From NCBI GenBank assembly GCA_049515535.1, contig JBEKTZ010000010.1:1-64000 (forward strand): DNA of 64,000 nucleotides, given 5' to 3'. Source of the stretch: Candidatus Aminicenantales bacterium. GTDB taxonomy: Bacteria; Acidobacteriota; Aminicenantia; Aminicenantales; UBA4085. Positions 21,155-33,270 of this stretch are shown in pieces. The notes beneath the pieces are model-generated. The model was given only the letters and a program-made list of their open reading frames with translations, ran no database searches and had not been told where the DNA came from. The position numbers and the translations under genes are program-made. Each line of letters starts with the position of its first letter. Position 1 is the first letter of the stretch.

Positions 21155-21676
21155 ATGAACGCAGTCAAGGGACGAGCCTTCGCGGCGGAAGTGGACCCCC
21201 GGGCAAAGCCCGGGGCGCTTACCCGCGATGTAAATACGCGGCTGAGTGCGGCGGAAGCGGATCCCCAGACAAAGCCTGGGGCCCCTACCGCCGCCCCGTC
21301 CGCCGGCGATGAACGGCGGGCGGAAACGCTGAAAGCCATTTTCTTCTGGGGCGCGCTCTGGGGAATCTGGGAAGCGACCGCCGGGCATGCCGCGCATTTC
21401 ATCCGCGTTCCTGGCCTTCCCGGTTTCATCATGTTTCCCGCCGCGTTCTTTTTCATGAGCCGGGCGTTCCTCCAGAGCGGCAAACTGACGTCCATCTTCG
21501 TGGCGGCCTGTATCGCGGCGAGCATCAAGCTTTTGGATTTTTTTATCCCAGCGCAGAATATCCAGGCCGTCGTCAATCCGGCCCAGGCCATCCTGCTCGA
21601 ATCCCTGGCCGTGACCGGATTTTACGCCTGTCTCGGCCGCCTTGCGGAAACGCGCCCGCAGAAGATCAAAAGATGA
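21155..21676 (+). CDS. Membrane protein with repeat-derived N-terminal 46-aa segment
   Basis: WGALWGIWEAT TM domain; TTGACG-16-TAAAAT promoter 7 nt before ATG 21155; stop overlaps the dmsA start. Confidence 0.7.
   Translation: MNAVKGRAFAAEVDPRAKPGALTRDVNTRLSAAEADPQTKPGAPTAAPSAGDERRAETLKAIFFWGALWGIWEATAGHAAHFIRVPGLPGFIMFPAAFFFMSRAFLQSGKLTSIFVAACIAASIKLLDFFIPAQNIQAVVNPAQAILLESLAVTGFYACLGRLAETRPQKIKR
21164..21305 (+). repeat. Modular palindromic repeat, copy C (in frame within CDS)
   Basis: Three hairpins; about 92% identical to copy D. Confidence 0.9.
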
Positions 21677-24090
21677 GCAAGCGAGGCCTCATCAAGAAAA
21701 AGATCGAATCCACGCCCATGAAACGGCGCAGCTTCCTCGGTTGGAGCTCGTTTTTCGGCGGCTCGGCCCTGGCCACCAAGCTGACGAAAAAATTCAAGCT
21801 CGCGGCGCCTCCGAAATCGGCGCCCGCGATCCAGGGCGCCTCTTCCGAACTCAAAATGATCCGGACCGGATGCCCTTCGCATAACTGCGGCGGGCGGTGC
21901 CTGCTCAAGGTCTATGTCATGGACGGTCGCATCGTCCGGATCGAAGGCGACGACCGGCCCACCGACGCGATCGAAGATCCCCAGCTCCGGCCGTGCGTCC
22001 GCGGCCGCTCCTACCGCCGGCGCCAATATCATCCCGACCGTCTTCAATTCCCGATGAAACGAACGGGCCGGCGCGGCGAGGGCAAATTCGTCCGCATCTC
22101 CTGGAACGAAGCGCTGGATAAGGTCGCCTCGGAAATGGAGAGGATCAAGAAAGCCTACGGCAACGCGGCCATCTATGTCCCCTACGGCACGGGAAGCTAC
22201 AACCAGATCAACGGCCGCCAGACCGCGCAAAGATTATTGAATCTTTTCGGCGGCTCTCTCGGTTTTTACAACAGCTATTCCTGGGCCGCGATTTCCTGCG
22301 CGACGCCCTTCGTCTACGGCACGAACGTGACGGGCAACCAGCGCCAGGACTGGCTGAATTCCAAATATATCCTGATGTGGAGCTGGAATCCGTGCGAGAT
22401 GCGCGACGGGACGAACTCCGAATACATCCTGAAAAAAGCGAGGGAGAAAGGGGCGAAGCTCGTCTGCGTCGACCCTCGCATGACGCTCAGCGCCGTGGCC
22501 CTCGCGGACGAATGGGTCCCCATCCGGCCGGGGACGGACGCGGCCATGATGTCGGCCATGGCCCACGTCATGATCAGCGAAAAGCTCTATGACACCGGCT
22601 TCGTCAAGACGCACTGCGTCGGTTTCGACGAAACGCAGATGCCCCCCGGAGCCGAAGGCGCGGAAAGCTACAAAGATTACATTTTAGGGACCCGCGACGG
22701 CATCCCCAAAACGCCCGAATGGGCGGAAGCCATTTGCGGCGTCCCGAAAAGCACGATTGCCCGAATCGCCCGCGAATACGCCACGTCGAAGCCGGCCGTC
22801 CTCTATCAAGGTTACGGTATGCAGCGCCGCGCCTACGGCGAGCAGGTCGTCCGCGCCGGCTGCGTCCTGGCCGCCATCACCGGCAACGTTGGCGTCCCCG
22901 GAGGATGGGCGGGCGGCATCGCCCTCCAGGCTCCCGCCGGCGGCGCGGCCTGGATCGTCTTCCCGACCGGCGAGAATCCAGTCAAGGCCCAAATTCCCTC
23001 TTTCCTGTGGTCGGAGGCGGTTGTCCGCGGCAAGGACATGGGGCCGGCCGACGGCGTGGTCGGCGCGCCGAAGCTCGGCACGAACATCAAGATGATCTAC
23101 GCCGTGGCCTGCAACGCGCTCATCAACCAGCACGCCAATATCAACCGGACGGCCCGCATCCTCCAGGACGAAAGCCTCGTGGAATCGCTGATCGTCCAGG
23201 ACAATTTTTTGACGCCGACCGGCCGCTTCGCCGATATTCTTCTTCCCGCCTGCACCCAGTTCGAGACCTGGGGAATCACCGACGGCTGGAAGTACGGCGA
23301 CGAAGTCATCCTCATGCCGAAGATCGTGGAGCCTCCGTTCGAGACGAAGAGCGACTACCAAATTTGCGCGGAGATCGCCCGGCGGCTGGGGTTATTCGAG
23401 GCTTACACCGAGGGCCGGAGCGAGCGCGATTGGGTCGCCTGGGCCGTGGAATATTTTCGCAAAACGCGGTTCCCGGACATCCCGGCGCTCAACGAGTTCG
23501 AGACATCGAACATCGGCGTGTACTCCGTCCCCGTGACCAAGCCGGCCGTGGCCTTCACCGATTTTCGCGAGGATCCCGAAAAGAACCCCCTCCCCACTCC
23601 GTCCGGAAAGATCGAGATTTTTTCCCAACGCCTCCATGACCTCCATAAACCCGACGCCATTCCGGCCGTGCCGAAATACATCAGGGAATGGGAAAGCCCG
23701 TTCGGTCCGGAAGCGAAGACATATCCGCTCCAGGTCATCGGCCATCATTACCTCGCCACCGTCCACTCGACGCTCGACAACGTCGACTGGCTCCGCGAAG
23801 CGTGGCCGCAGCGCCTCTTCATCAATCCGATCGACGCCGCGGCGCGCGGCATCGTCAACGGCAATCGGGTCAAGATCTTCAACGACCGGGGCGCGACGAT
23901 GGTCCGTTGCCGGGTGACGAAGCGGATCATGCCGGGCGTCGTCGCCCTTCCGCAGGGCGCCTGGTGGGACCCCGACGAAAAAGGCGTGGACCGGAGAGGC
24001 TCGGTCAACGTCCTGACGTCCGAGCGCTGGACGCCTCTCGCTTTCGGCAACGCCCAGCATACGATCATGGCCCAAGTAGAGAAAGCCTGA
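21673..24090 (+). CDS. dmsA: Anaerobic DMSO/selenate reductase family molybdopterin subunit A
   Basis: Tat motif KRRSFL, CPSHNCGGRC Fe-S motif, SYSW (Ser ligand), TPSGKIEI, molydopterin-binding C-terminus. Confidence 0.9.
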   Translation: MSKRGLIKKKIESTPMKRRSFLGWSSFFGGSALATKLTKKFKLAAPPKSAPAIQGASSELKMIRTGCPSHNCGGRCLLKVYVMDGRIVRIEGDDRPTDAIEDPQLRPCVRGRSYRRRQYHPDRLQFPMKRTGRRGEGKFVRISWNEALDKVASEMERIKKAYGNAAIYVPYGTGSYNQINGRQTAQRLLNLFGGSLGFYNSYSWAAISCATPFVYGTNVTGNQRQDWLNSKYILMWSWNPCEMRDGTNSEYILKKAREKGAKLVCVDPRMTLSAVALADEWVPIRPGTDAAMMSAMAHVMISEKLYDTGFVKTHCVGFDETQMPPGAEGAESYKDYILGTRDGIPKTPEWAEAICGVPKSTIARIAREYATSKPAVLYQGYGMQRRAYGEQVVRAGCVLAAITGNVGVPGGWAGGIALQAPAGGAAWIVFPTGENPVKAQIPSFLWSEAVVRGKDMGPADGVVGAPKLGTNIKMIYAVACNALINQHANINRTARILQDESLVESLIVQDNFLTPTGRFADILLPACTQFETWGITDGWKYGDEVILMPKIVEPPFETKSDYQICAEIARRLGLFEAYTEGRSERDWVAWAVEYFRKTRFPDIPALNEFETSNIGVYSVPVTKPAVAFTDFREDPEKNPLPTPSGKIEIFSQRLHDLHKPDAIPAVPKYIREWESPFGPEAKTYPLQVIGHHYLATVHSTLDNVDWLREAWPQRLFINPIDAAARGIVNGNRVKIFNDRGATMVRCRVTKRIMPGVVALPQGAWWDPDEKGVDRRGSVNVLTSERWTPLAFGNAQHTIMAQVEKA

Positions 24091-24719
24091 TGCCGAACCC
24101 TTATATCCATCAGTACGCGTTTTTCTTCGACGCGAGCGCCTGCTCCGGCTGCAAGGCCTGTCAGGGCGCCTGCAAGGACAAACACGATCTCCCGGTCGGC
24201 GTCCTCTGGCGGCGCGTCTACGAAGTGGCCGGCGGCGGCTGGAAAAAGGCGGGCGGAGTCTGGGTTCCCGATGTCTTCTCCTACAATCTGTCCATGGCCT
24301 GCCATCATTGCGCGAACCCGATCTGCGGCGACGCTTGTCCGACCAAGGCCATATTCAAGCGCGACGATGGGATCGTCATCCTCGATACGCAGGCTTGCAT
24401 CGGATGCCGCTACTGCGAGTGGGCCTGCCCCTATGGCGCGACGCAGTTCGACGCGGCCAAGCGGATCATGTCGAAATGCCACTTCTGCTACGACTATGTC
24501 GATGAGGGCAAGCCGCCGGCCTGCGTGGCCGCGTGTCCGATGCGGGCTCTCGATTTTGGCGAGCTCTCAGATCTGAAGCAAAAATACGGCGGGACGGCCG
24601 AGATCTTTCCCCTCCCGGACGCCAAGATCACCGAGCCGGCCCTCCTGATCAAGTTGCACAAGGACGCGCCGCGCGCCGGCAAGGACACCGCCGAAGTCGC
24701 GAACTGGGAAGAAATCTGA
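24090..24719 (+). CDS. dmsB: DMSO reductase iron-sulfur subunit B
   Basis: CSGCKACQGAC, CHHCANPIC, CIGCRYCEWACP, KCHFC...PACV; ATG overlaps the dmsA stop. Confidence 0.92.
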   Translation: MPNPYIHQYAFFFDASACSGCKACQGACKDKHDLPVGVLWRRVYEVAGGGWKKAGGVWVPDVFSYNLSMACHHCANPICGDACPTKAIFKRDDGIVILDTQACIGCRYCEWACPYGATQFDAAKRIMSKCHFCYDYVDEGKPPACVAACPMRALDFGELSDLKQKYGGTAEIFPLPDAKITEPALLIKLHKDAPRAGKDTAEVANWEEI

Positions 24720-24720
24720 A

Positions 24721-25590
24721 ATGTCCGGAACCGGGGGGAAAGAATGGCCGCTGATCTGTTTCACCCTCCTCTCCCAGACCGCGGTCGGGGCCTTTTGGAC
24801 ATGGGCGGCTTTTTTTCTCGTCATGGGAAACACCGGCGGAGGGGGAGAGTTCGGATTTTTAACCATCCCGGTCCTAACGGCCCTCGGGGCCGTGCTCGGC
24901 CTCGCCGCCGCGATCTCATTCTTCCATCTCGGAAAACTGTGGCGGGCCGTTTTTGTCCTGAATAACCTCCGGCGGTCTTGGTTGAGCCGCGAGATCCTCT
25001 TCGAGCTGGCTTTTCTCTTCATGATCGCGCTCTTGGCCTTTTTAGAATGGCACGGCGTCGGCCTTCCCTTCGTTATCGGCGGCCTCGTCGCACTCGCGGC
25101 CGTCATCGGCTTTTGCTTTCTTTTCAGCATGGCCAAGATCTATATGTTGACCACGGTGCCCGTCTGGCGCGGCCCACACACGATCGCGTCCTTTTTCCTC
25201 TCGGCCCTGCTCCTCGGGCCGCTGGCAGCCGCCGCCGGACAAGGCTCGCTCTACAAATATTCGGACAGGACGCATTCCTTTCAGGACATCGCGGCTTTCG
25301 TCTCCCTCTCGGCCGTCGTCCTCATCGTTCTGATGATTTTGTTCCTCACTCCCCGCGTCGGTTTTCTCGGCGCCCGAAAGACCACGCTTCTCGAATATCC
25401 CGCCGACCGGATGTATCCGTATCTCGCCTTCAGGATCCTGTTCCTTGGAGCGGCCACGCTCTTTCTTGTTGCGTTCCATAAAAAACAGGAAATCGGCCGG
25501 CTGATAAGCTTCGCCCTCGCCAGCGCGGTCGCGGCCGAGGTGTTGGGCCGCCGTCTTTTTTACGCGATCTACAGCCGGGTCGGGGTTTGA
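24721..25590 (+). CDS. dmsC: DMSO reductase membrane anchor subunit C
   Basis: EWPLICFTLLSQ, SFFHLG, SWLSRE, EVLGRRLFY motifs. Confidence 0.9.
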   Translation: MSGTGGKEWPLICFTLLSQTAVGAFWTWAAFFLVMGNTGGGGEFGFLTIPVLTALGAVLGLAAAISFFHLGKLWRAVFVLNNLRRSWLSREILFELAFLFMIALLAFLEWHGVGLPFVIGGLVALAAVIGFCFLFSMAKIYMLTTVPVWRGPHTIASFFLSALLLGPLAAAAGQGSLYKYSDRTHSFQDIAAFVSLSAVVLIVLMILFLTPRVGFLGARKTTLLEYPADRMYPYLAFRILFLGAATLFLVAFHKKQEIGRLISFALASAVAAEVLGRRLFYAIYSRVGV

Positions 25591-29324: not shown

Positions 29325-29353
29325 TTGACTTCCCCCTGTGGAAATCTTATAGT
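29325..29353 (+). promoter_or_regulatory. Putative sigma70 promoter, leaderless-type
   Basis: TTGACT-17 nt-TATAGT, 6 nt before ATG 29360, no SD. Confidence 0.6.
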
Positions 29354-29359
29354 CCGAAT

Positions 29360-30871
29360 ATGAAAAAATTCCTCACCCTGGCCTTCGTTCTTGCGCTCGC
29401 TTGCGCGGCTTCGGCCCAGACATGGTTCAAGGGAACCCTGGACCAAGCGGCGTCCAAAGCCAAAAGCGATCACAAGCTGGTCCTCGTCGATTTTTACTCC
29501 TACACCTGAGGGAGCTGCAAACTGCTGGGTCAGCAGTTTTACGAAAATCCCAAGTTCAGAGACTTCCTCGAAAAGAATTTCGTCCTCTTCCGGGCCATTG
29601 TCCAAGAGCCGGCCGGCGACGCCGTCTTCAAGAAATTCGGCATTCGCGCCACGCCGACGATCATGCTTCTCGACGGGGACGGCGCCGAAGTCGATTGGGT
29701 CGTCGGCTACGCTCCTCCCCCCGAGAAATTCGAGGACAAGCTCGGGCAGATGGTGGCCGGCAACGAGACGTTCAAGTCCCTGTCCGCCGCTTATGCCAAG
29801 AATCCCAAGGACGTCCCGACCGTCTTCAAGCTGGCGCGGAAATGGAGCGACCGTTACGACGAAGCCAAAGCCGCGGTGAAATATAAAGAGGTTCTCGCCC
29901 TCGATCCCCTGGGCCAAGCCGGCACCTACACCCAGGAATATTCGAAGATCACCGCGTCTTACACCGAGTTTGCCGAATTCTCGATCGCGACGGCCAATCT
30001 GAACGGGCAGAAGCCGGACATGGCTCCGGTCAAGGCCTTCATCGTGAAACACGCGAACAGCAAGCTGGTGAAACAGGCCTATAGTCGGATGAGTTATTAT
30101 TACGGCTATCAGGCGCCCAAAGATGAGGCCGCCAAATTTTTCGAGGAATACGCGGGGAAATATCCGAACGATCCGATGGTCCTGTTTAGCTGGTTGTCCC
30201 GCATCGTCAGGGACAAGGAACCTCTCGACAAGGGCATCCAGCTCGCCGAGAAGATCGAGGAGATGACGGATTTCAACCCCAGCGCGAGCATCAACAATCT
30301 CCTGGCTCAGATCTACAACCTCAAAGGCGATAAAGCCAAGGTCGAAGAGCTCTACGGCAAGAGCTTCATGGAGAACGAGCTCTCCAGCATGGGCTACAGT
30401 CTCGTCGCCTATGCCAATTACTGGCTGGGGCAGAACGCCAACCAGGACAGCGCCGTGGCCATGGCCGAGACGGCCCTGAAACTCGAACCCGAAAACTCCT
30501 ACTTCCTCCAGCAGGCCGCCAACGCCTACATCAAGACGGGCAAAGAGGAGAAGGCCCTGGTCGTCTTCGGCCCGGCCTATGCCAGGAAGAACGCGTCGGA
30601 CGGCACCGCCCTCTACAGCTACGCCGGCTTCTGGTCCAGGCAAGGCAAGAACCTGGACGACGCTCTCGCCGCGGCCAAAAAGGCCGTCGAGATGATGCCT
30701 CAAACTTATTACATGTGGTCCACGCTCGCGGACGTCCATCTGAAAATGAAGAATTATCCCGAGGCTATCAAGGCCGCGGAAAAAGCGGTCGAGGTCGCCG
30801 AAGGGACGGCCAAGGACGCGATGAAGAAAAAAGTCGACCAGATCAAAGCCGCGGAGAAAGAGAAGAAATAG
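29360..30871 (+). CDS. Secreted thioredoxin-fold (UGSC) + TPR selenoprotein 1, 503 aa, Sec at UGA 29507-29509
   Basis: Signal peptide, then KLVLVDFYSYT-UGA-GSCK; frame continues into the ORF at 29663; cis-Pro-like ATPT; TPRs. Confidence 0.85.
29510..29539 (+). promoter_or_regulatory. Putative bacterial SECIS hairpin 1
   Basis: AAACTGCTG-GGT-CAGCAGTTT, a perfect 9-bp stem with a G-starting loop 18 nt after the UGA. Confidence 0.75.
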
Positions 30872-30893
30872 AGAAGAAATAGCCTATATCGCG

Positions 30894-31637
30894 GTGCTTC
30901 TCTCGCGTTCATTTCGCAAAAGGGAAATAAGAGCCTCCCGCCGTGACGGGAGAAGGGAAATTTTGCCGGGCTATTATAGTCAACATCTGGCGGCTGAACG
31001 TCTCAAGGCCTGTTATGATCTGGCTCCGCCAAGAACAAAACAATACCTCGAGGCCGAGATTTCCCATGTTCTCGGCAAAGTCTCGAGCGAACATGTCGTG
31101 CTGGAAATGGGCTGCGGCTATGGAAGGATCATCGACAGACTCAAAGGCGCGGTGAAAGCCGTCGCGGGCATAGACACTTCGTCCGAAAGCTTGCTCATGG
31201 CGAGGGATTTCCTTGGCTCCGCCGCTTCCATCCGGCTGGCCAGAATGAATGCCGTTTGCCTGGGCTTTCATGACCGGGTTTTCGACGTCACGCTCTGCCT
31301 TCAGAATGGCATATCGGCTTTCGCGGTCGACAAGGCGCGACTGTTTCAAGAAGCCATTCGAGCGACAAAACCGGGCGGCCTCGTCCTCTTTTCGAGCTAC
31401 TCCGCCCGATTCTGGCCCCACCGATTGGAATGGTTCGAGGCGCAGTCCGCGCACGGCCTTATCGGTCCGATCGATTATGAGAGGACAAAAGACGGCCAGA
31501 TCGTATGCAAAGACGGTTTCAGCGCCACGACGCTTTCGGCCGGGGACTTTCAGTCGCTGGCGGCTCAGGCCGGGCAAGTGCCGACCATCGTCGAAGTCGA
31601 CGGTTCAAGCCTCTTTTGCGAGATGAGGGTGAAATGA
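30894..31637 (+). CDS. Class I SAM-dependent methyltransferase
   Basis: VLEMGCGYGR, GID, KPGG motifs; true start may be TTG 30963. Confidence 0.85.
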   Translation: MLLSRSFRKREIRASRRDGRREILPGYYSQHLAAERLKACYDLAPPRTKQYLEAEISHVLGKVSSEHVVLEMGCGYGRIIDRLKGAVKAVAGIDTSSESLLMARDFLGSAASIRLARMNAVCLGFHDRVFDVTLCLQNGISAFAVDKARLFQEAIRATKPGGLVLFSSYSARFWPHRLEWFEAQSAHGLIGPIDYERTKDGQIVCKDGFSATTLSAGDFQSLAAQAGQVPTIVEVDGSSLFCEMRVK

Positions 31638-31776
31638 ATCGAGCCCGACGCTCAAATATCAATGGGCAAAAAACTATGACCCTCTTTGACTTCGACGACA
31701 AAAACAAACAGATGGTCATGGTTTTTTCCATTGACAGCGGCGGGGACGAAAGATTATATTTCCCCTAGAGGTGCGC

Positions 31777-33225
31777 ATGAAAAAAATTCTCACCCTGTCT
31801 TTCGTGCTTGCGCTCGCCTCCTTGGCCTCGGCCCAGAACTGGTTCAAGGGAACGCTGGATGAGGCGACGGCCAAGGCCAAGGGCGATCACAAGCTGGTCC
31901 TTCTCGACTTCAACTCCTATACCTGAGGGGGCTGCAAACTGCTCGGTGAGCAGTTCCTCGAAAACCCCAAATTCCAAGATTTCTTAACCAAGAATTTCGT
32001 CCTTTACCAGGCCACCATCCAAGAGCCGGCCGGCGACGCGATCTTCAAGAAGTTCGCCATCCGCGCCACACCGACGGTCATGGTCCTCGATGGGGACGGG
32101 TCCGAGGTCGACTGGGTCGTCGGCTACGACCCTCCGGCCGAGAAATTCCAGGAGAGGATCGGACAAATGACGGCCGGCGTAGACACCTTCAAGTCCCTGT
32201 CCGCCGCCTATGCCAAGAACCCCAAGGACGAGGCGACCATTTTCAAGCTGGCCCAAAAATGGAGTGACCGCTACAACGACGCGAAATCCCAGGAAAAATA
32301 CAAAGAGATCCTGGCGCTCGATCCCGATGGAAAGCTGGGCACGACGGAATTCCAAAAAGAGAAAGTTTCCTATACCGAATATGCCGAATATAATTTGGGC
32401 CTCGGCACCCTGCGCGCTCGGCCGCCCGTTCCCGCGTCGATCCTGGCCTTCATCAAGAAATACCCCGAGAGCTCCATGGTCAAGGAGGCCTTTCGGAACC
32501 TGGCCTCCGCCTATTTCGGCCGCACGGCGCCGAAGGACGAAGCCGTCAAATTCTTCGAGGAATACACGGCCCGCTACGCTCAGGATCCCCTGGTCCTCGG
32601 TGCCTACGTGAGACGCATCATCCAGGACAAGGACAACCTGGATAAAGGCCTCGTGCTCGCGCAGAAAGCCGTCGATCTCGCCCAGGGCGGCGCAAAGATC
32701 CCCATGCTCCAGAGCCTGGCCCAGGTCCATCTCCTCAAGGGAGACAAGGCCAAAGCCGCGGAAACAGCTGAGAAGATCGTGGCGTTGGACGCTGAGGGAA
32801 TAAGCGCCATGATGACGATGGCGCCGGAAGGAGCGCCTTCCGGACCTGTTTTCGCGAATCTCATGAACGCCGCCCGGATCTTCGTCGAAGCCGACAAGCT
32901 TGACCGGGCTCTCGCGGTCTTCGGCCCGGATTTCCTGAAGAAGAACCTGGCCAAAGCCGACGCGGTTTCCAGGTATGCCTCGTTCTGGTCGAGCCAAAAC
33001 AAGAACCTGGAGAGCGCCCTGGAAGCGGCAAAGAAAGCCGTCGAGTTGACACCGGACGCCTTTGCCGTCTGGAACACGCTGAGCCAGGTCCATCTAAAAA
33101 TGAAAAACTACGACGAGGCGATCAAAGCGGCCCAGAAGGCCGTCGACGTCGCTCCCACGGAACAACTGAAGGAAAGGTTCAGAAAGCAGATCGAGCAGAT
33201 CAAGGCGGAGAAGGAAAAAAAGTAA
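31777..33225 (+). CDS. Secreted thioredoxin-fold (UGGC) + TPR selenoprotein 2, 482 aa, Sec at UGA 31924-31926
   Basis: RBS GAGGTG; signal peptide; KLVLLDFNSYT-UGA-GGCK; frame continues into the ORF at 32080; UGA at the same codon 50 as the paralogue. Confidence 0.85.
31927..31955 (+). promoter_or_regulatory. Putative bacterial SECIS hairpin 2
   Basis: AACTGCTC-GGT-GAGCAGTT, an 8-bp stem whose closing pair is swapped (C-G vs G-C) relative to SECIS 1. Confidence 0.75.
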
Positions 33226-33238
33226 GCGATTTTTGATG

Positions 33239-33270
33239 AAGGGGACAATCTGGGGTGTCCCCTTTTTTTT
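33239..33270 (+). terminator. Intrinsic terminator
   Basis: GGGGACA-loop-TGTCCCC followed by T8, between convergent genes. Confidence 0.75.

Follow-up and report, generated by a model that had tools for sequence, protein, structure and literature searches.

Two selenocysteine-type thioredoxin–TPR genes in an Aminicenantales genome and their coupling to the selenocysteine machinery of the order

The DNA described here, the first 64,000 nt of contig JBEKTZ010000010.1 of a Candidatus Aminicenantales genome (the window), carries two paralogous genes, A and B, each with a single in-frame TGA at codon 50. This UGA almost certainly encodes selenocysteine (Sec) in both, and the sequences describe two intact selenoprotein genes whose products combine a thioredoxin domain with a long tetratricopeptide repeat (TPR) part. 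Judging from the fold and the gene neighbours, the protein may act as an envelope disulfide reductase or isomerase whose TPR arm binds client proteins, a reading to which we give a probability of about 0.6. The protein class is already known and the gene-level finding alone is ordinary. The new part is the pattern in the lineage: the coupling of the gene to the selenocysteine (sel) genes across the order, its embedding in sel operons and the near absence of FdhA and SelD in their Sec forms.

Selenocysteine at codon 50

The initial annotation placed UGA at exactly codon 50 of both genes, in the contexts DFYSYT-UGA-GSC and DFNSYT-UGA-GGC, and saw the frames continue into thioredoxin-like and TPR sequence. 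The contexts are correct, and the read-through frames extend to 503 and 482 aa, each closed by its own non-TGA stop (Table 1). The standard open reading frame (ORF) track does cut both genes in two at the TGA, with loss of the signal peptide and active site. The proteins are 55% identical. They had been described as tandem; they are indeed two paralogues on the forward strand, but not strictly tandem, as a methyltransferase ORF lies between them.

The sel genes, proposed earlier as a check on the Sec reading, are present. The selA, selB and selD matches are over their cut-offs, and a tRNA-Sec(UCA) is found on contig C11; it is the sole tRNA with a UCA anticodon in the genome. TGA is the commonest stop codon and ends 648 of 1240 long genes, so the genetic code is the standard one. 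A genome-wide reassignment of UGA to Trp or Gly, or its reading as Cys, would be compatible with the open frames, as would any reassignment of TGA. It is practically negligible against the 648 genes that end in TGA, a sole UCA tRNA that is tRNA-Sec, and homologues that have Cys rather than Trp or Gly at the Sec column.

U50 aligns with the first Cys of the thioredoxin CxxC motif in the genome's own TrxA and in its DsbD C-terminal domain (cDsbD), in agreement with the original proposal that UGA replaces this residue. Among 99 distinct close homologues having enough upstream DNA, the Sec column holds TGA in 99, the second Cys of UxxC is kept in 99 and a stop within the next 100 codons is found in none (0/99); overlapping homologue sets give TGA in 40/40 and 86/86. 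These counts come from related sequences and are not independent events. A TGA in 99/99 at one column is not chance. Cys at this column, which had been suggested as a further check, occurs in P0124, a full-length homologue with 45% identity, and in 8 of 21 more distant loci in the phylum, the other 13 having TGA.

A SECIS-type hairpin downstream of the UGA

The model of the bacterial selenocysteine insertion sequence (bSECIS; PMC13188914, section 5) has a loop of 3–9 nt, G in the first two loop positions, a spacing of 16–37 nt and a minimum free energy of −7.5 or lower. The hairpins of genes A and B have a 3-nt loop with G first, a spacing of 18 nt and energies of −9.9 and −9.3 kcal/mol, and agree with the model on all four counts. 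G is first in the loop in 99/99 homologues. In an alignment of 40 sequences, 98.4% of the hairpin cells are paired and the closing pair never mismatches (G-C in 21 sequences, C-G in 19); RNAalifold recovers the same helix unprompted. The paired codons covary (n = 99): the first pair is CTG/CAG in 93 and TTG/CAA in 6, the second CTG/CAG in 73, CTC/GAG in 25 and TTG/CAG in 1. Third-position differences are 0.093 in the hairpin versus 0.389 upstream and 0.485 downstream. The element constrains the protein sequence too, a Gln/Glu change being coupled to a silent change of Leu codon.

A loose genome-wide hairpin scan is too unspecific, with 3374 of 20,319 TGA sites matching, 423 of them in the SECIS register. 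The hairpin alone is therefore weak evidence, and the case rests on the covariation. Windows of 56–100 nt around the hairpins have unremarkable folding z-scores (0.09 to −1.44); strong z-scores hold for the hairpin excised after it had been seen and are not independent.

These data bear on the opposite explanation, in which UGA is a true stop and the genes are pseudogenes, or encode a short secreted peptide and a separately started TPR protein. Such a reading finds some footing in the databases, where 120/120 homologues among the matches listed are annotated as downstream fragments of 363–452 aa without CxxC, and in the genome, where TGA is the commonest stop and a Ser/Thr kinase gene (L153, G000:C6:76241, + strand) has an in-frame TGA that is flanked on either side by coding-like sequence, lacks a strong hairpin and looks like an ordinary nonsense change. 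It has to contend with the same codon in 99/99 homologues, a hairpin that covaries and a gene that tracks the sel genes. At the TGA stops of long genes (n = 648), only 8 have a hairpin of at least 7 Watson-Crick pairs, 2 of them in the SECIS register. Annotated starts of the database homologues differ between records. The next Met 3′ of the TGA is present in 42/99, and the codons leading to it differ mostly at third positions (0.238/0.233/0.485), so a downstream start is unlikely. We regard the true-stop explanation as largely refuted and very improbable.

The initial annotation had named three findings that would speak against selenocysteine, namely missing Sec machinery, homologues with neither Cys nor UGA, and exclusive use of a downstream start; none of them holds. 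Its selenocysteine reading is strongly supported by the machinery, the TGA/Cys column and the hairpin together.

Domain architecture, fold and export

The Pfam family PF13098 (Thioredoxin_2) matches A with 52.1 bits and B with 49.8 bits (cut-off 27), at residues 34–128, and TPR matches lie further on, among them a weak one to TPR_CcmH_CycH below cut-off. The U-x-x-C and Pro99 columns are conserved in the alignment. Structure prediction of the read-through product, also suggested earlier, gives a thioredoxin fold that leads into a helical solenoid: the AlphaFold2 model of mature gene A (45-row alignment) has a mean predicted local distance difference test score of 95.4 and a predicted template modelling score of 0.78, and its TPR part is all helical except for one short hairpin. 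The closest solved folds to the thioredoxin domain are those of DsbH from Chlamydia and of cDsbD. The top match is DsbH (2ju5; Z 15.7, root mean square deviation (rmsd) 1.9, 113 aligned residues); 1vrs has Z 13.9, and a Bacteroides cytochrome c biogenesis-related domain (3f9u) Z 14.1. Unlike A and B, DsbH and cDsbD have no TPR part and carry Cys instead of Sec. DsbD is the commonest partial NCBIfam match in the family (43/45). The TPR part makes up three quarters of the protein and has generic TPR matches only (Foldseek TM ≤0.33). Its length is variable, with downstream frames of 415–679 aa among paralogues, and there are up to 6 matches per genome. With high confidence in the model, the mature protein is predicted to consist of a DsbH/cDsbD-like thioredoxin domain and a long TPR solenoid.

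A hydrophobic N-terminus is present in all 97 homologues with a start found, and 82 have an AxA-type site. The N-terminal peptide very probably routes the protein out of the cytoplasm; the earlier claim of export stands to the extent of this heuristic.

Proposed function and alternatives

As an envelope disulfide reductase or isomerase, the protein would work as follows. SelB bound to the hairpin 18 nt downstream almost certainly makes the ribosome read UGA50 as selenocysteine, and the N-terminal peptide very probably takes the product out of the cytoplasm. There, Sec50 would be the attacking and Cys53 the resolving residue of the DsbH/cDsbD-like domain. With the client held by the TPR arm, the selenolate would act on a disulfide that is wrong or oxidised; regeneration of the enzyme by DsbD or CcdA would pass through an nDsbD domain. 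In several loci a stand-alone gene for nDsbD, whose product has a signal-like N-terminus and ends in a C-terminal Cys pair, lies downstream: it is directly adjacent in L105, L106, L109, L111 and L140 and one ORF away in L117 and L139. nDsbD gives electrons to periplasmic thioredoxin-fold proteins. The genome studied here (G000) encodes a full DsbD. DsbH is described as a reducing periplasmic oxidoreductase in the available text of PMC5193440.

Several observations weigh against this assignment. The nDsbD neighbour is found in only 5 of 71 unselected loci and is absent from the window. The distribution of DsbD_TM (78 of 129 genomes) does not follow that of the gene: G004, G007 and G017 have DsbD_TM but lack the gene, and at E 1e-12 no match appears in several genomes that carry the gene, such as G203, G233, G406, G498 and G500. 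The top fold matches are close together (Z 15.7 to 13.9), and a shared fold shows no function. In 97/99 homologues Thr or Gly takes the place of the Trp that usually precedes the first Cys, so that classic thioredoxins are no guide to the redox behaviour.

The domain layout also invites comparison with CnoX/YbbN of E. coli and Caulobacter, which have an N-terminal thioredoxin domain and C-terminal TPR. In that case A and B would be real selenoproteins acting as exported CnoX-like chaperedoxins, with the TPR part as holdase, Sec shielding client thiols by mixed bonds under oxidant or oxygen, and net electron transfer secondary. The shared domain order (PMC8129009, in the part available), the size of the TPR part with its varying length, and genes for HtrA protease, OsmC, TrxB-like proteins and cytochrome bd that recur near some loci are in line with this; these neighbours are rare, however (≤10 of 71 loci). 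CnoX passes its clients to cytoplasmic GroEL/DnaK, which is impossible for an exported protein, and the hydrophobic N-terminus (97/97, heuristic) indicates that A and B, unlike CnoX, are not cytoplasmic. Their TPR part is longer, and E. coli CnoX has SxxC according to the same text. The YbbN structure 3qdn aligns with the gene A model (>400 residues) at Z 12.6, but with an rmsd of 20 over 182 aligned residues. The resolving Cys is kept in 99/99, as expected for a catalytic cycle. We consider the chaperedoxin role unlikely.

A selenoprotein dedicated to one pathway, either cytochrome c maturation (CcmG/CcmH-like) or a single TPR-recognised outer-membrane or secreted complex, is more doubtful still. 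The cDsbD-like domain with its nDsbD neighbour, the TPR_CcmH_CycH match (sub-cut-off) and the 3f9u match would suit it, but no ccm gene was recognised among the 60 most widespread neighbour clusters (13 representatives Pfam-scanned), and the copy number and variable TPR length suggest several clients. The disulfide reductase or isomerase is the assignment we prefer.

Coupling to the selenocysteine machinery across the order

The order was sampled with 176 genomes at least 85% complete, of which 76 have selA and 72 the thioredoxin–TPR gene. Both are present in 69 and neither in 97, leaving 7 with selA only and 3 with the gene only. For selD, counted by hand, the corresponding figures are 70, 98, 6 and 2. 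In the host's family (27 genomes) the gene and selD occur in the same 23. It counts against the strength of this association that the co-occurring genomes are related, so that a Fisher test overstates it. As for the gene-only genomes with respect to selA, G006 has selD, and in G448 selB and tRNA-Sec lie no more than 5 kb from the gene; in G303 selA, selB and selD were not found. The six selD-positive, gene-negative genomes are 85–91% complete and in 140–510 contigs; in five of them a wider profile found only Cys thioredoxins, DsbD and generic TPRs.

A sel gene lies in the flank of 7 of the 71 unselected loci. Among loci chosen for the sel-operon test, L097, L111, L117 (L141 appears to be the same locus), L139 and L140 have the gene flanked by selD and selB, all on one strand; in L139 and L140 tRNA-Sec lies 3′ of selB. 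In the genome studied here the sel cluster is on a contig other than that of A and B. By title, 54 of 71 genome-collection loci belong to Candidatus Aminicenantes, Aminicenantales or Aminicenantia, 13 are 'uncultured Eubacteriales' and 4 are labelled otherwise; the oddly labelled loci present in the tree nest among Aminicenantes rows.

Two further groups of genes are seen at such loci. A 676-aa exported-looking protein with no Pfam match is encoded inside the sel operon between the thioredoxin–TPR and nDsbD genes (L139:3206-5233, − strand; L117:3808-5835, + strand). In L142, L143, L147 and L128, genes for exported TlpA/AhpC-like proteins of the Cys type and for a 4Fe-4S membrane protein cluster with the sel and thioredoxin–TPR genes.

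Other selenoproteins in the genome and the order

In the genome studied here (94% complete), no TGA lies inside molybdopterin, MvhD, NiFe-hydrogenase or AhpC matches, and SelD has Cys. In the host's family no molybdopterin or MvhD match has a TGA. Across the order, a stop is found in 0 of 35 Fdh-alpha matches, including 7 over cut-off in 6 genomes (3 with selA), and 75 of 76 SelD matches spanning the catalytic site are without TGA, the exception being G444. De novo scans of the genome, judged by eye, gave A and B as the only convincing TGA codons with coding-like flanks; the filter retains 2590 of 3027 genuine Cys codons and covers short or terminal Sec sites less well. A PF00085 search gave no TGA matches, a weak negative since A and B themselves are not listed, and a GrdB search is uninformative because it matched no control genome. 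That the A/B family is the sole selenoprotein of the genome is our hypothesis, most of the 119 catalogued families not having been searched singly.

Two candidates were rejected. A TGA at an HdrA match, at first read as Sec, proved to be the stop codon of the gene, and the genome therefore offers no internal positive control for SECIS. The other, a U-Y-I-C site on contig C7, falls in non-coding DNA 5′ of a different gene. SelD of the lineage has a Cys-rich N-terminal extension of ~70–90 aa (L151:10766-11956 in this genome; L142:10356-11558; L174:650-1891). In this genome the extension has several Cys and no Pfam match; the G444 extension is a ferredoxin-thioredoxin reductase beta-chain domain (PF02943, 56 bits), and the SelD to which it is fused is of the Sec type.

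Relation to described selenoprotein families

The nearest described group is the 'Thiol:disulfide interchange protein' selenoprotein family (PF13098, UxxC, representative WP_011366075.1; Table 1 of PMC13188914 and supplements of PMC12013277, as available). A and B share with it PF13098 as best Pfam match, UxxC with one Sec, and a thioredoxin domain followed by helical repeats. WP_011366075.1, inspected by eye, is a protein of ~190 aa that lacks a signal peptide and ends in a short helical tail; A and B have ~500 aa, are predicted to be exported and occur in multiple copies. Under the same name, the deep-Sep data (PMC12013277, in the part available) list a 439-aa thioredoxin–TPR selenoprotein with signal peptide from candidate division LCP-89. 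By eye, this protein has the motifs of the A/B family and closely resembles P0176, which is 30% identical to gene A, and it probably belongs to the family. Organisms listed under the 'thiol:disulfide interchange protein' family also have Sec-SelD and Sec-FdhA (available text of PMC1794560), and the LCP-89 genome has Sec-SelD and Sec-Prx, unlike the genome of A and B, in which our scans found no further selenoprotein.

No NCBIfam model reaches its cut-off for A or B. The DsbH model NF043050 gives 18.1 bits against 190. Trx7/PDZ (NF041199), TsoB (NF045694), VPGUxxT type 2 (NF041383) and UGSC-containing (NF041046) proteins likewise have a thioredoxin-like domain with Sec, and the motif of A happens to read UGSC, but architectures or motifs differ, and the scores stay far under the cut-offs: the first three give 14.5/300, 33.6/805 and 13.1/275 bits, and NF041046 has no match at E up to 1. 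The 119-family selenoprotein catalogue has no TPR entry. The family had initially been called possibly undescribed; the NCBIfam and catalogue results agree with this, but the deep-Sep relative is already filed under a known family. Literature searches, with the families of Haft and Tolstoy 2025 covered via NCBIfam and the review table, gave no paper describing the A/B family or its lineage. The string 'Aminicen' does not occur in the available BSepDB genome table (PMC13326102), which lists 190 Acidobacteriota rows; the lineage may therefore have gone unexamined there.

Family tree

In a quick tree, computed with long-branch warnings and no clade test, A and B fall in separate subclades, each shared with other genomes, and the duplication is thus older than this genome. 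One clade (Shimodaira–Hasegawa-like approximate likelihood ratio test, SH-aLRT, 99) holds 102 Sec rows, 20 database fragments starting just after the motif and 1 Cys row, P0124, nested among the Sec forms on a long branch. A second subfamily, in another family of the order (L168–L172; G458, G456, G444, G454), has lipoprotein-like signal peptides, U-G-x-C and ~370 aa downstream; a 3-nt-loop hairpin in SECIS register is not always present. The Cys-type relatives P0125, P0186, P0203 and P0232 have two or three tandem thioredoxin domains in a PDI-like layout, three of them with TPR matches.

Other features of the window

The sigma70-like sites (Table 1) are weak evidence alone, 2 being found versus 1.4 in shuffled sequence. 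The −10 box of gene A ends 6 nt 5′ of the ATG and there is no Shine-Dalgarno (SD) motif; the mRNA is probably leaderless. Among 97 homologous starts, 84 have an SD-like motif and 6 are apparently leaderless. The gene A orthologues L010, L011, L013, L014 and L016 keep the −35/−10 promoter ~6 nt before the ATG and lack an SD motif (29325-29362 in the window), which suggests a conserved leaderless mRNA for a selenoprotein. The methyltransferase ORF is a passenger not conserved beside the thioredoxin–TPR family, since none of the fetched loci from other genomes has one. An operon for a molybdopterin oxidoreductase, a 4Fe-4S protein and a DmsC-type anchor lies 4 kb upstream (21673-25590, + strand); its catalytic subunit has no TGA.

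Table 1. Positions of genes A and B and of associated features in the window
Feature	Position	Strand	Basis or remark
Gene A, selenoprotein precursor, 503 aa (U50)	29360..30871	+	TGA read as Sec
Gene B, paralogue, 482 aa (U50-G-G-C53), shorter TPR part	31777..33225	+	TGA read as Sec
Sec UGA codon, gene A	29507..29509	+	
Sec UGA codon, gene B	31924..31926	+	
Predicted signal peptide A, 19 aa, cleavage after A-S-A	29360..29416	+	Hydrophobicity and AxA heuristic
Thioredoxin-fold domain A (DsbH/cDsbD-like), U50-G-S-C53, invariant Pro99	29417..29764	+	PF13098, model, 2ju5 match, invariant columns
TPR/alpha-solenoid A	29765..30868	+	Pfam TPR matches; helical model
bSECIS-type hairpin A, stem 9 bp, G-first 3-nt loop, 18 nt past UGA	29519..29539	+	−9.9 kcal/mol; covariation
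bSECIS-type hairpin B, stem 8 bp, closing pair C-G (G-C in A)	31937..31955	+	−9.3 kcal/mol
Sigma70-like promoter, gene A	29325..29353	+	10/12 consensus; consensus match only
Sigma70-like promoter, gene B, then SD-like GAGG	31731..31760	+	11/12 consensus
Class I S-adenosylmethionine (SAM) methyltransferase ORF between A and B (true start probably further in)	30894..31637	+	Pfam
Terminator-like hairpin 3′ of gene B	33238..33265	+	Consensus match only

Maintenance of the selenocysteine trait

In the available text of PMC1794560, FdhA or SelD is found in every selenoproteome and Sec decoders without FdhA have Sec-SelD, an idea repeated in a 2026 review. Where FdhA is the sole selenoprotein, its gene clusters with selA-selB-selC (PMC1794560 and PMC5029168, as available). 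Like that gene, the thioredoxin–TPR gene is clustered, and gained or lost, with the Sec machinery. Unlike in that case, the anchor would be an exported thioredoxin–TPR protein, FdhA and SelD being mostly Cys forms or absent. The lineage is an apparent order-wide exception to the FdhA/SelD rule. On slight balance we favour the view that the order keeps selA-selB-selC-selD essentially to make this one exported selenoprotein family. On this view Sec-FdhA is lacking, SelD is of the Cys type, and several genomes carry the gene within the sel operon together with an nDsbD redox partner of its own.

Because the listed database homologues are recorded as 'TPR protein' fragments that have lost signal peptide and active site, a widespread redox family has been hidden. 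Why Sec is kept could be tested cleanly in this family, which has one catalytic residue and, within the Sec forms, one Cys variant. If the order does keep its Sec machinery essentially for this family, the trait would here be maintained by something other than FdhA or SelD, against the published rule, and selenium would seem to be hard to replace in a redox task of the envelope.

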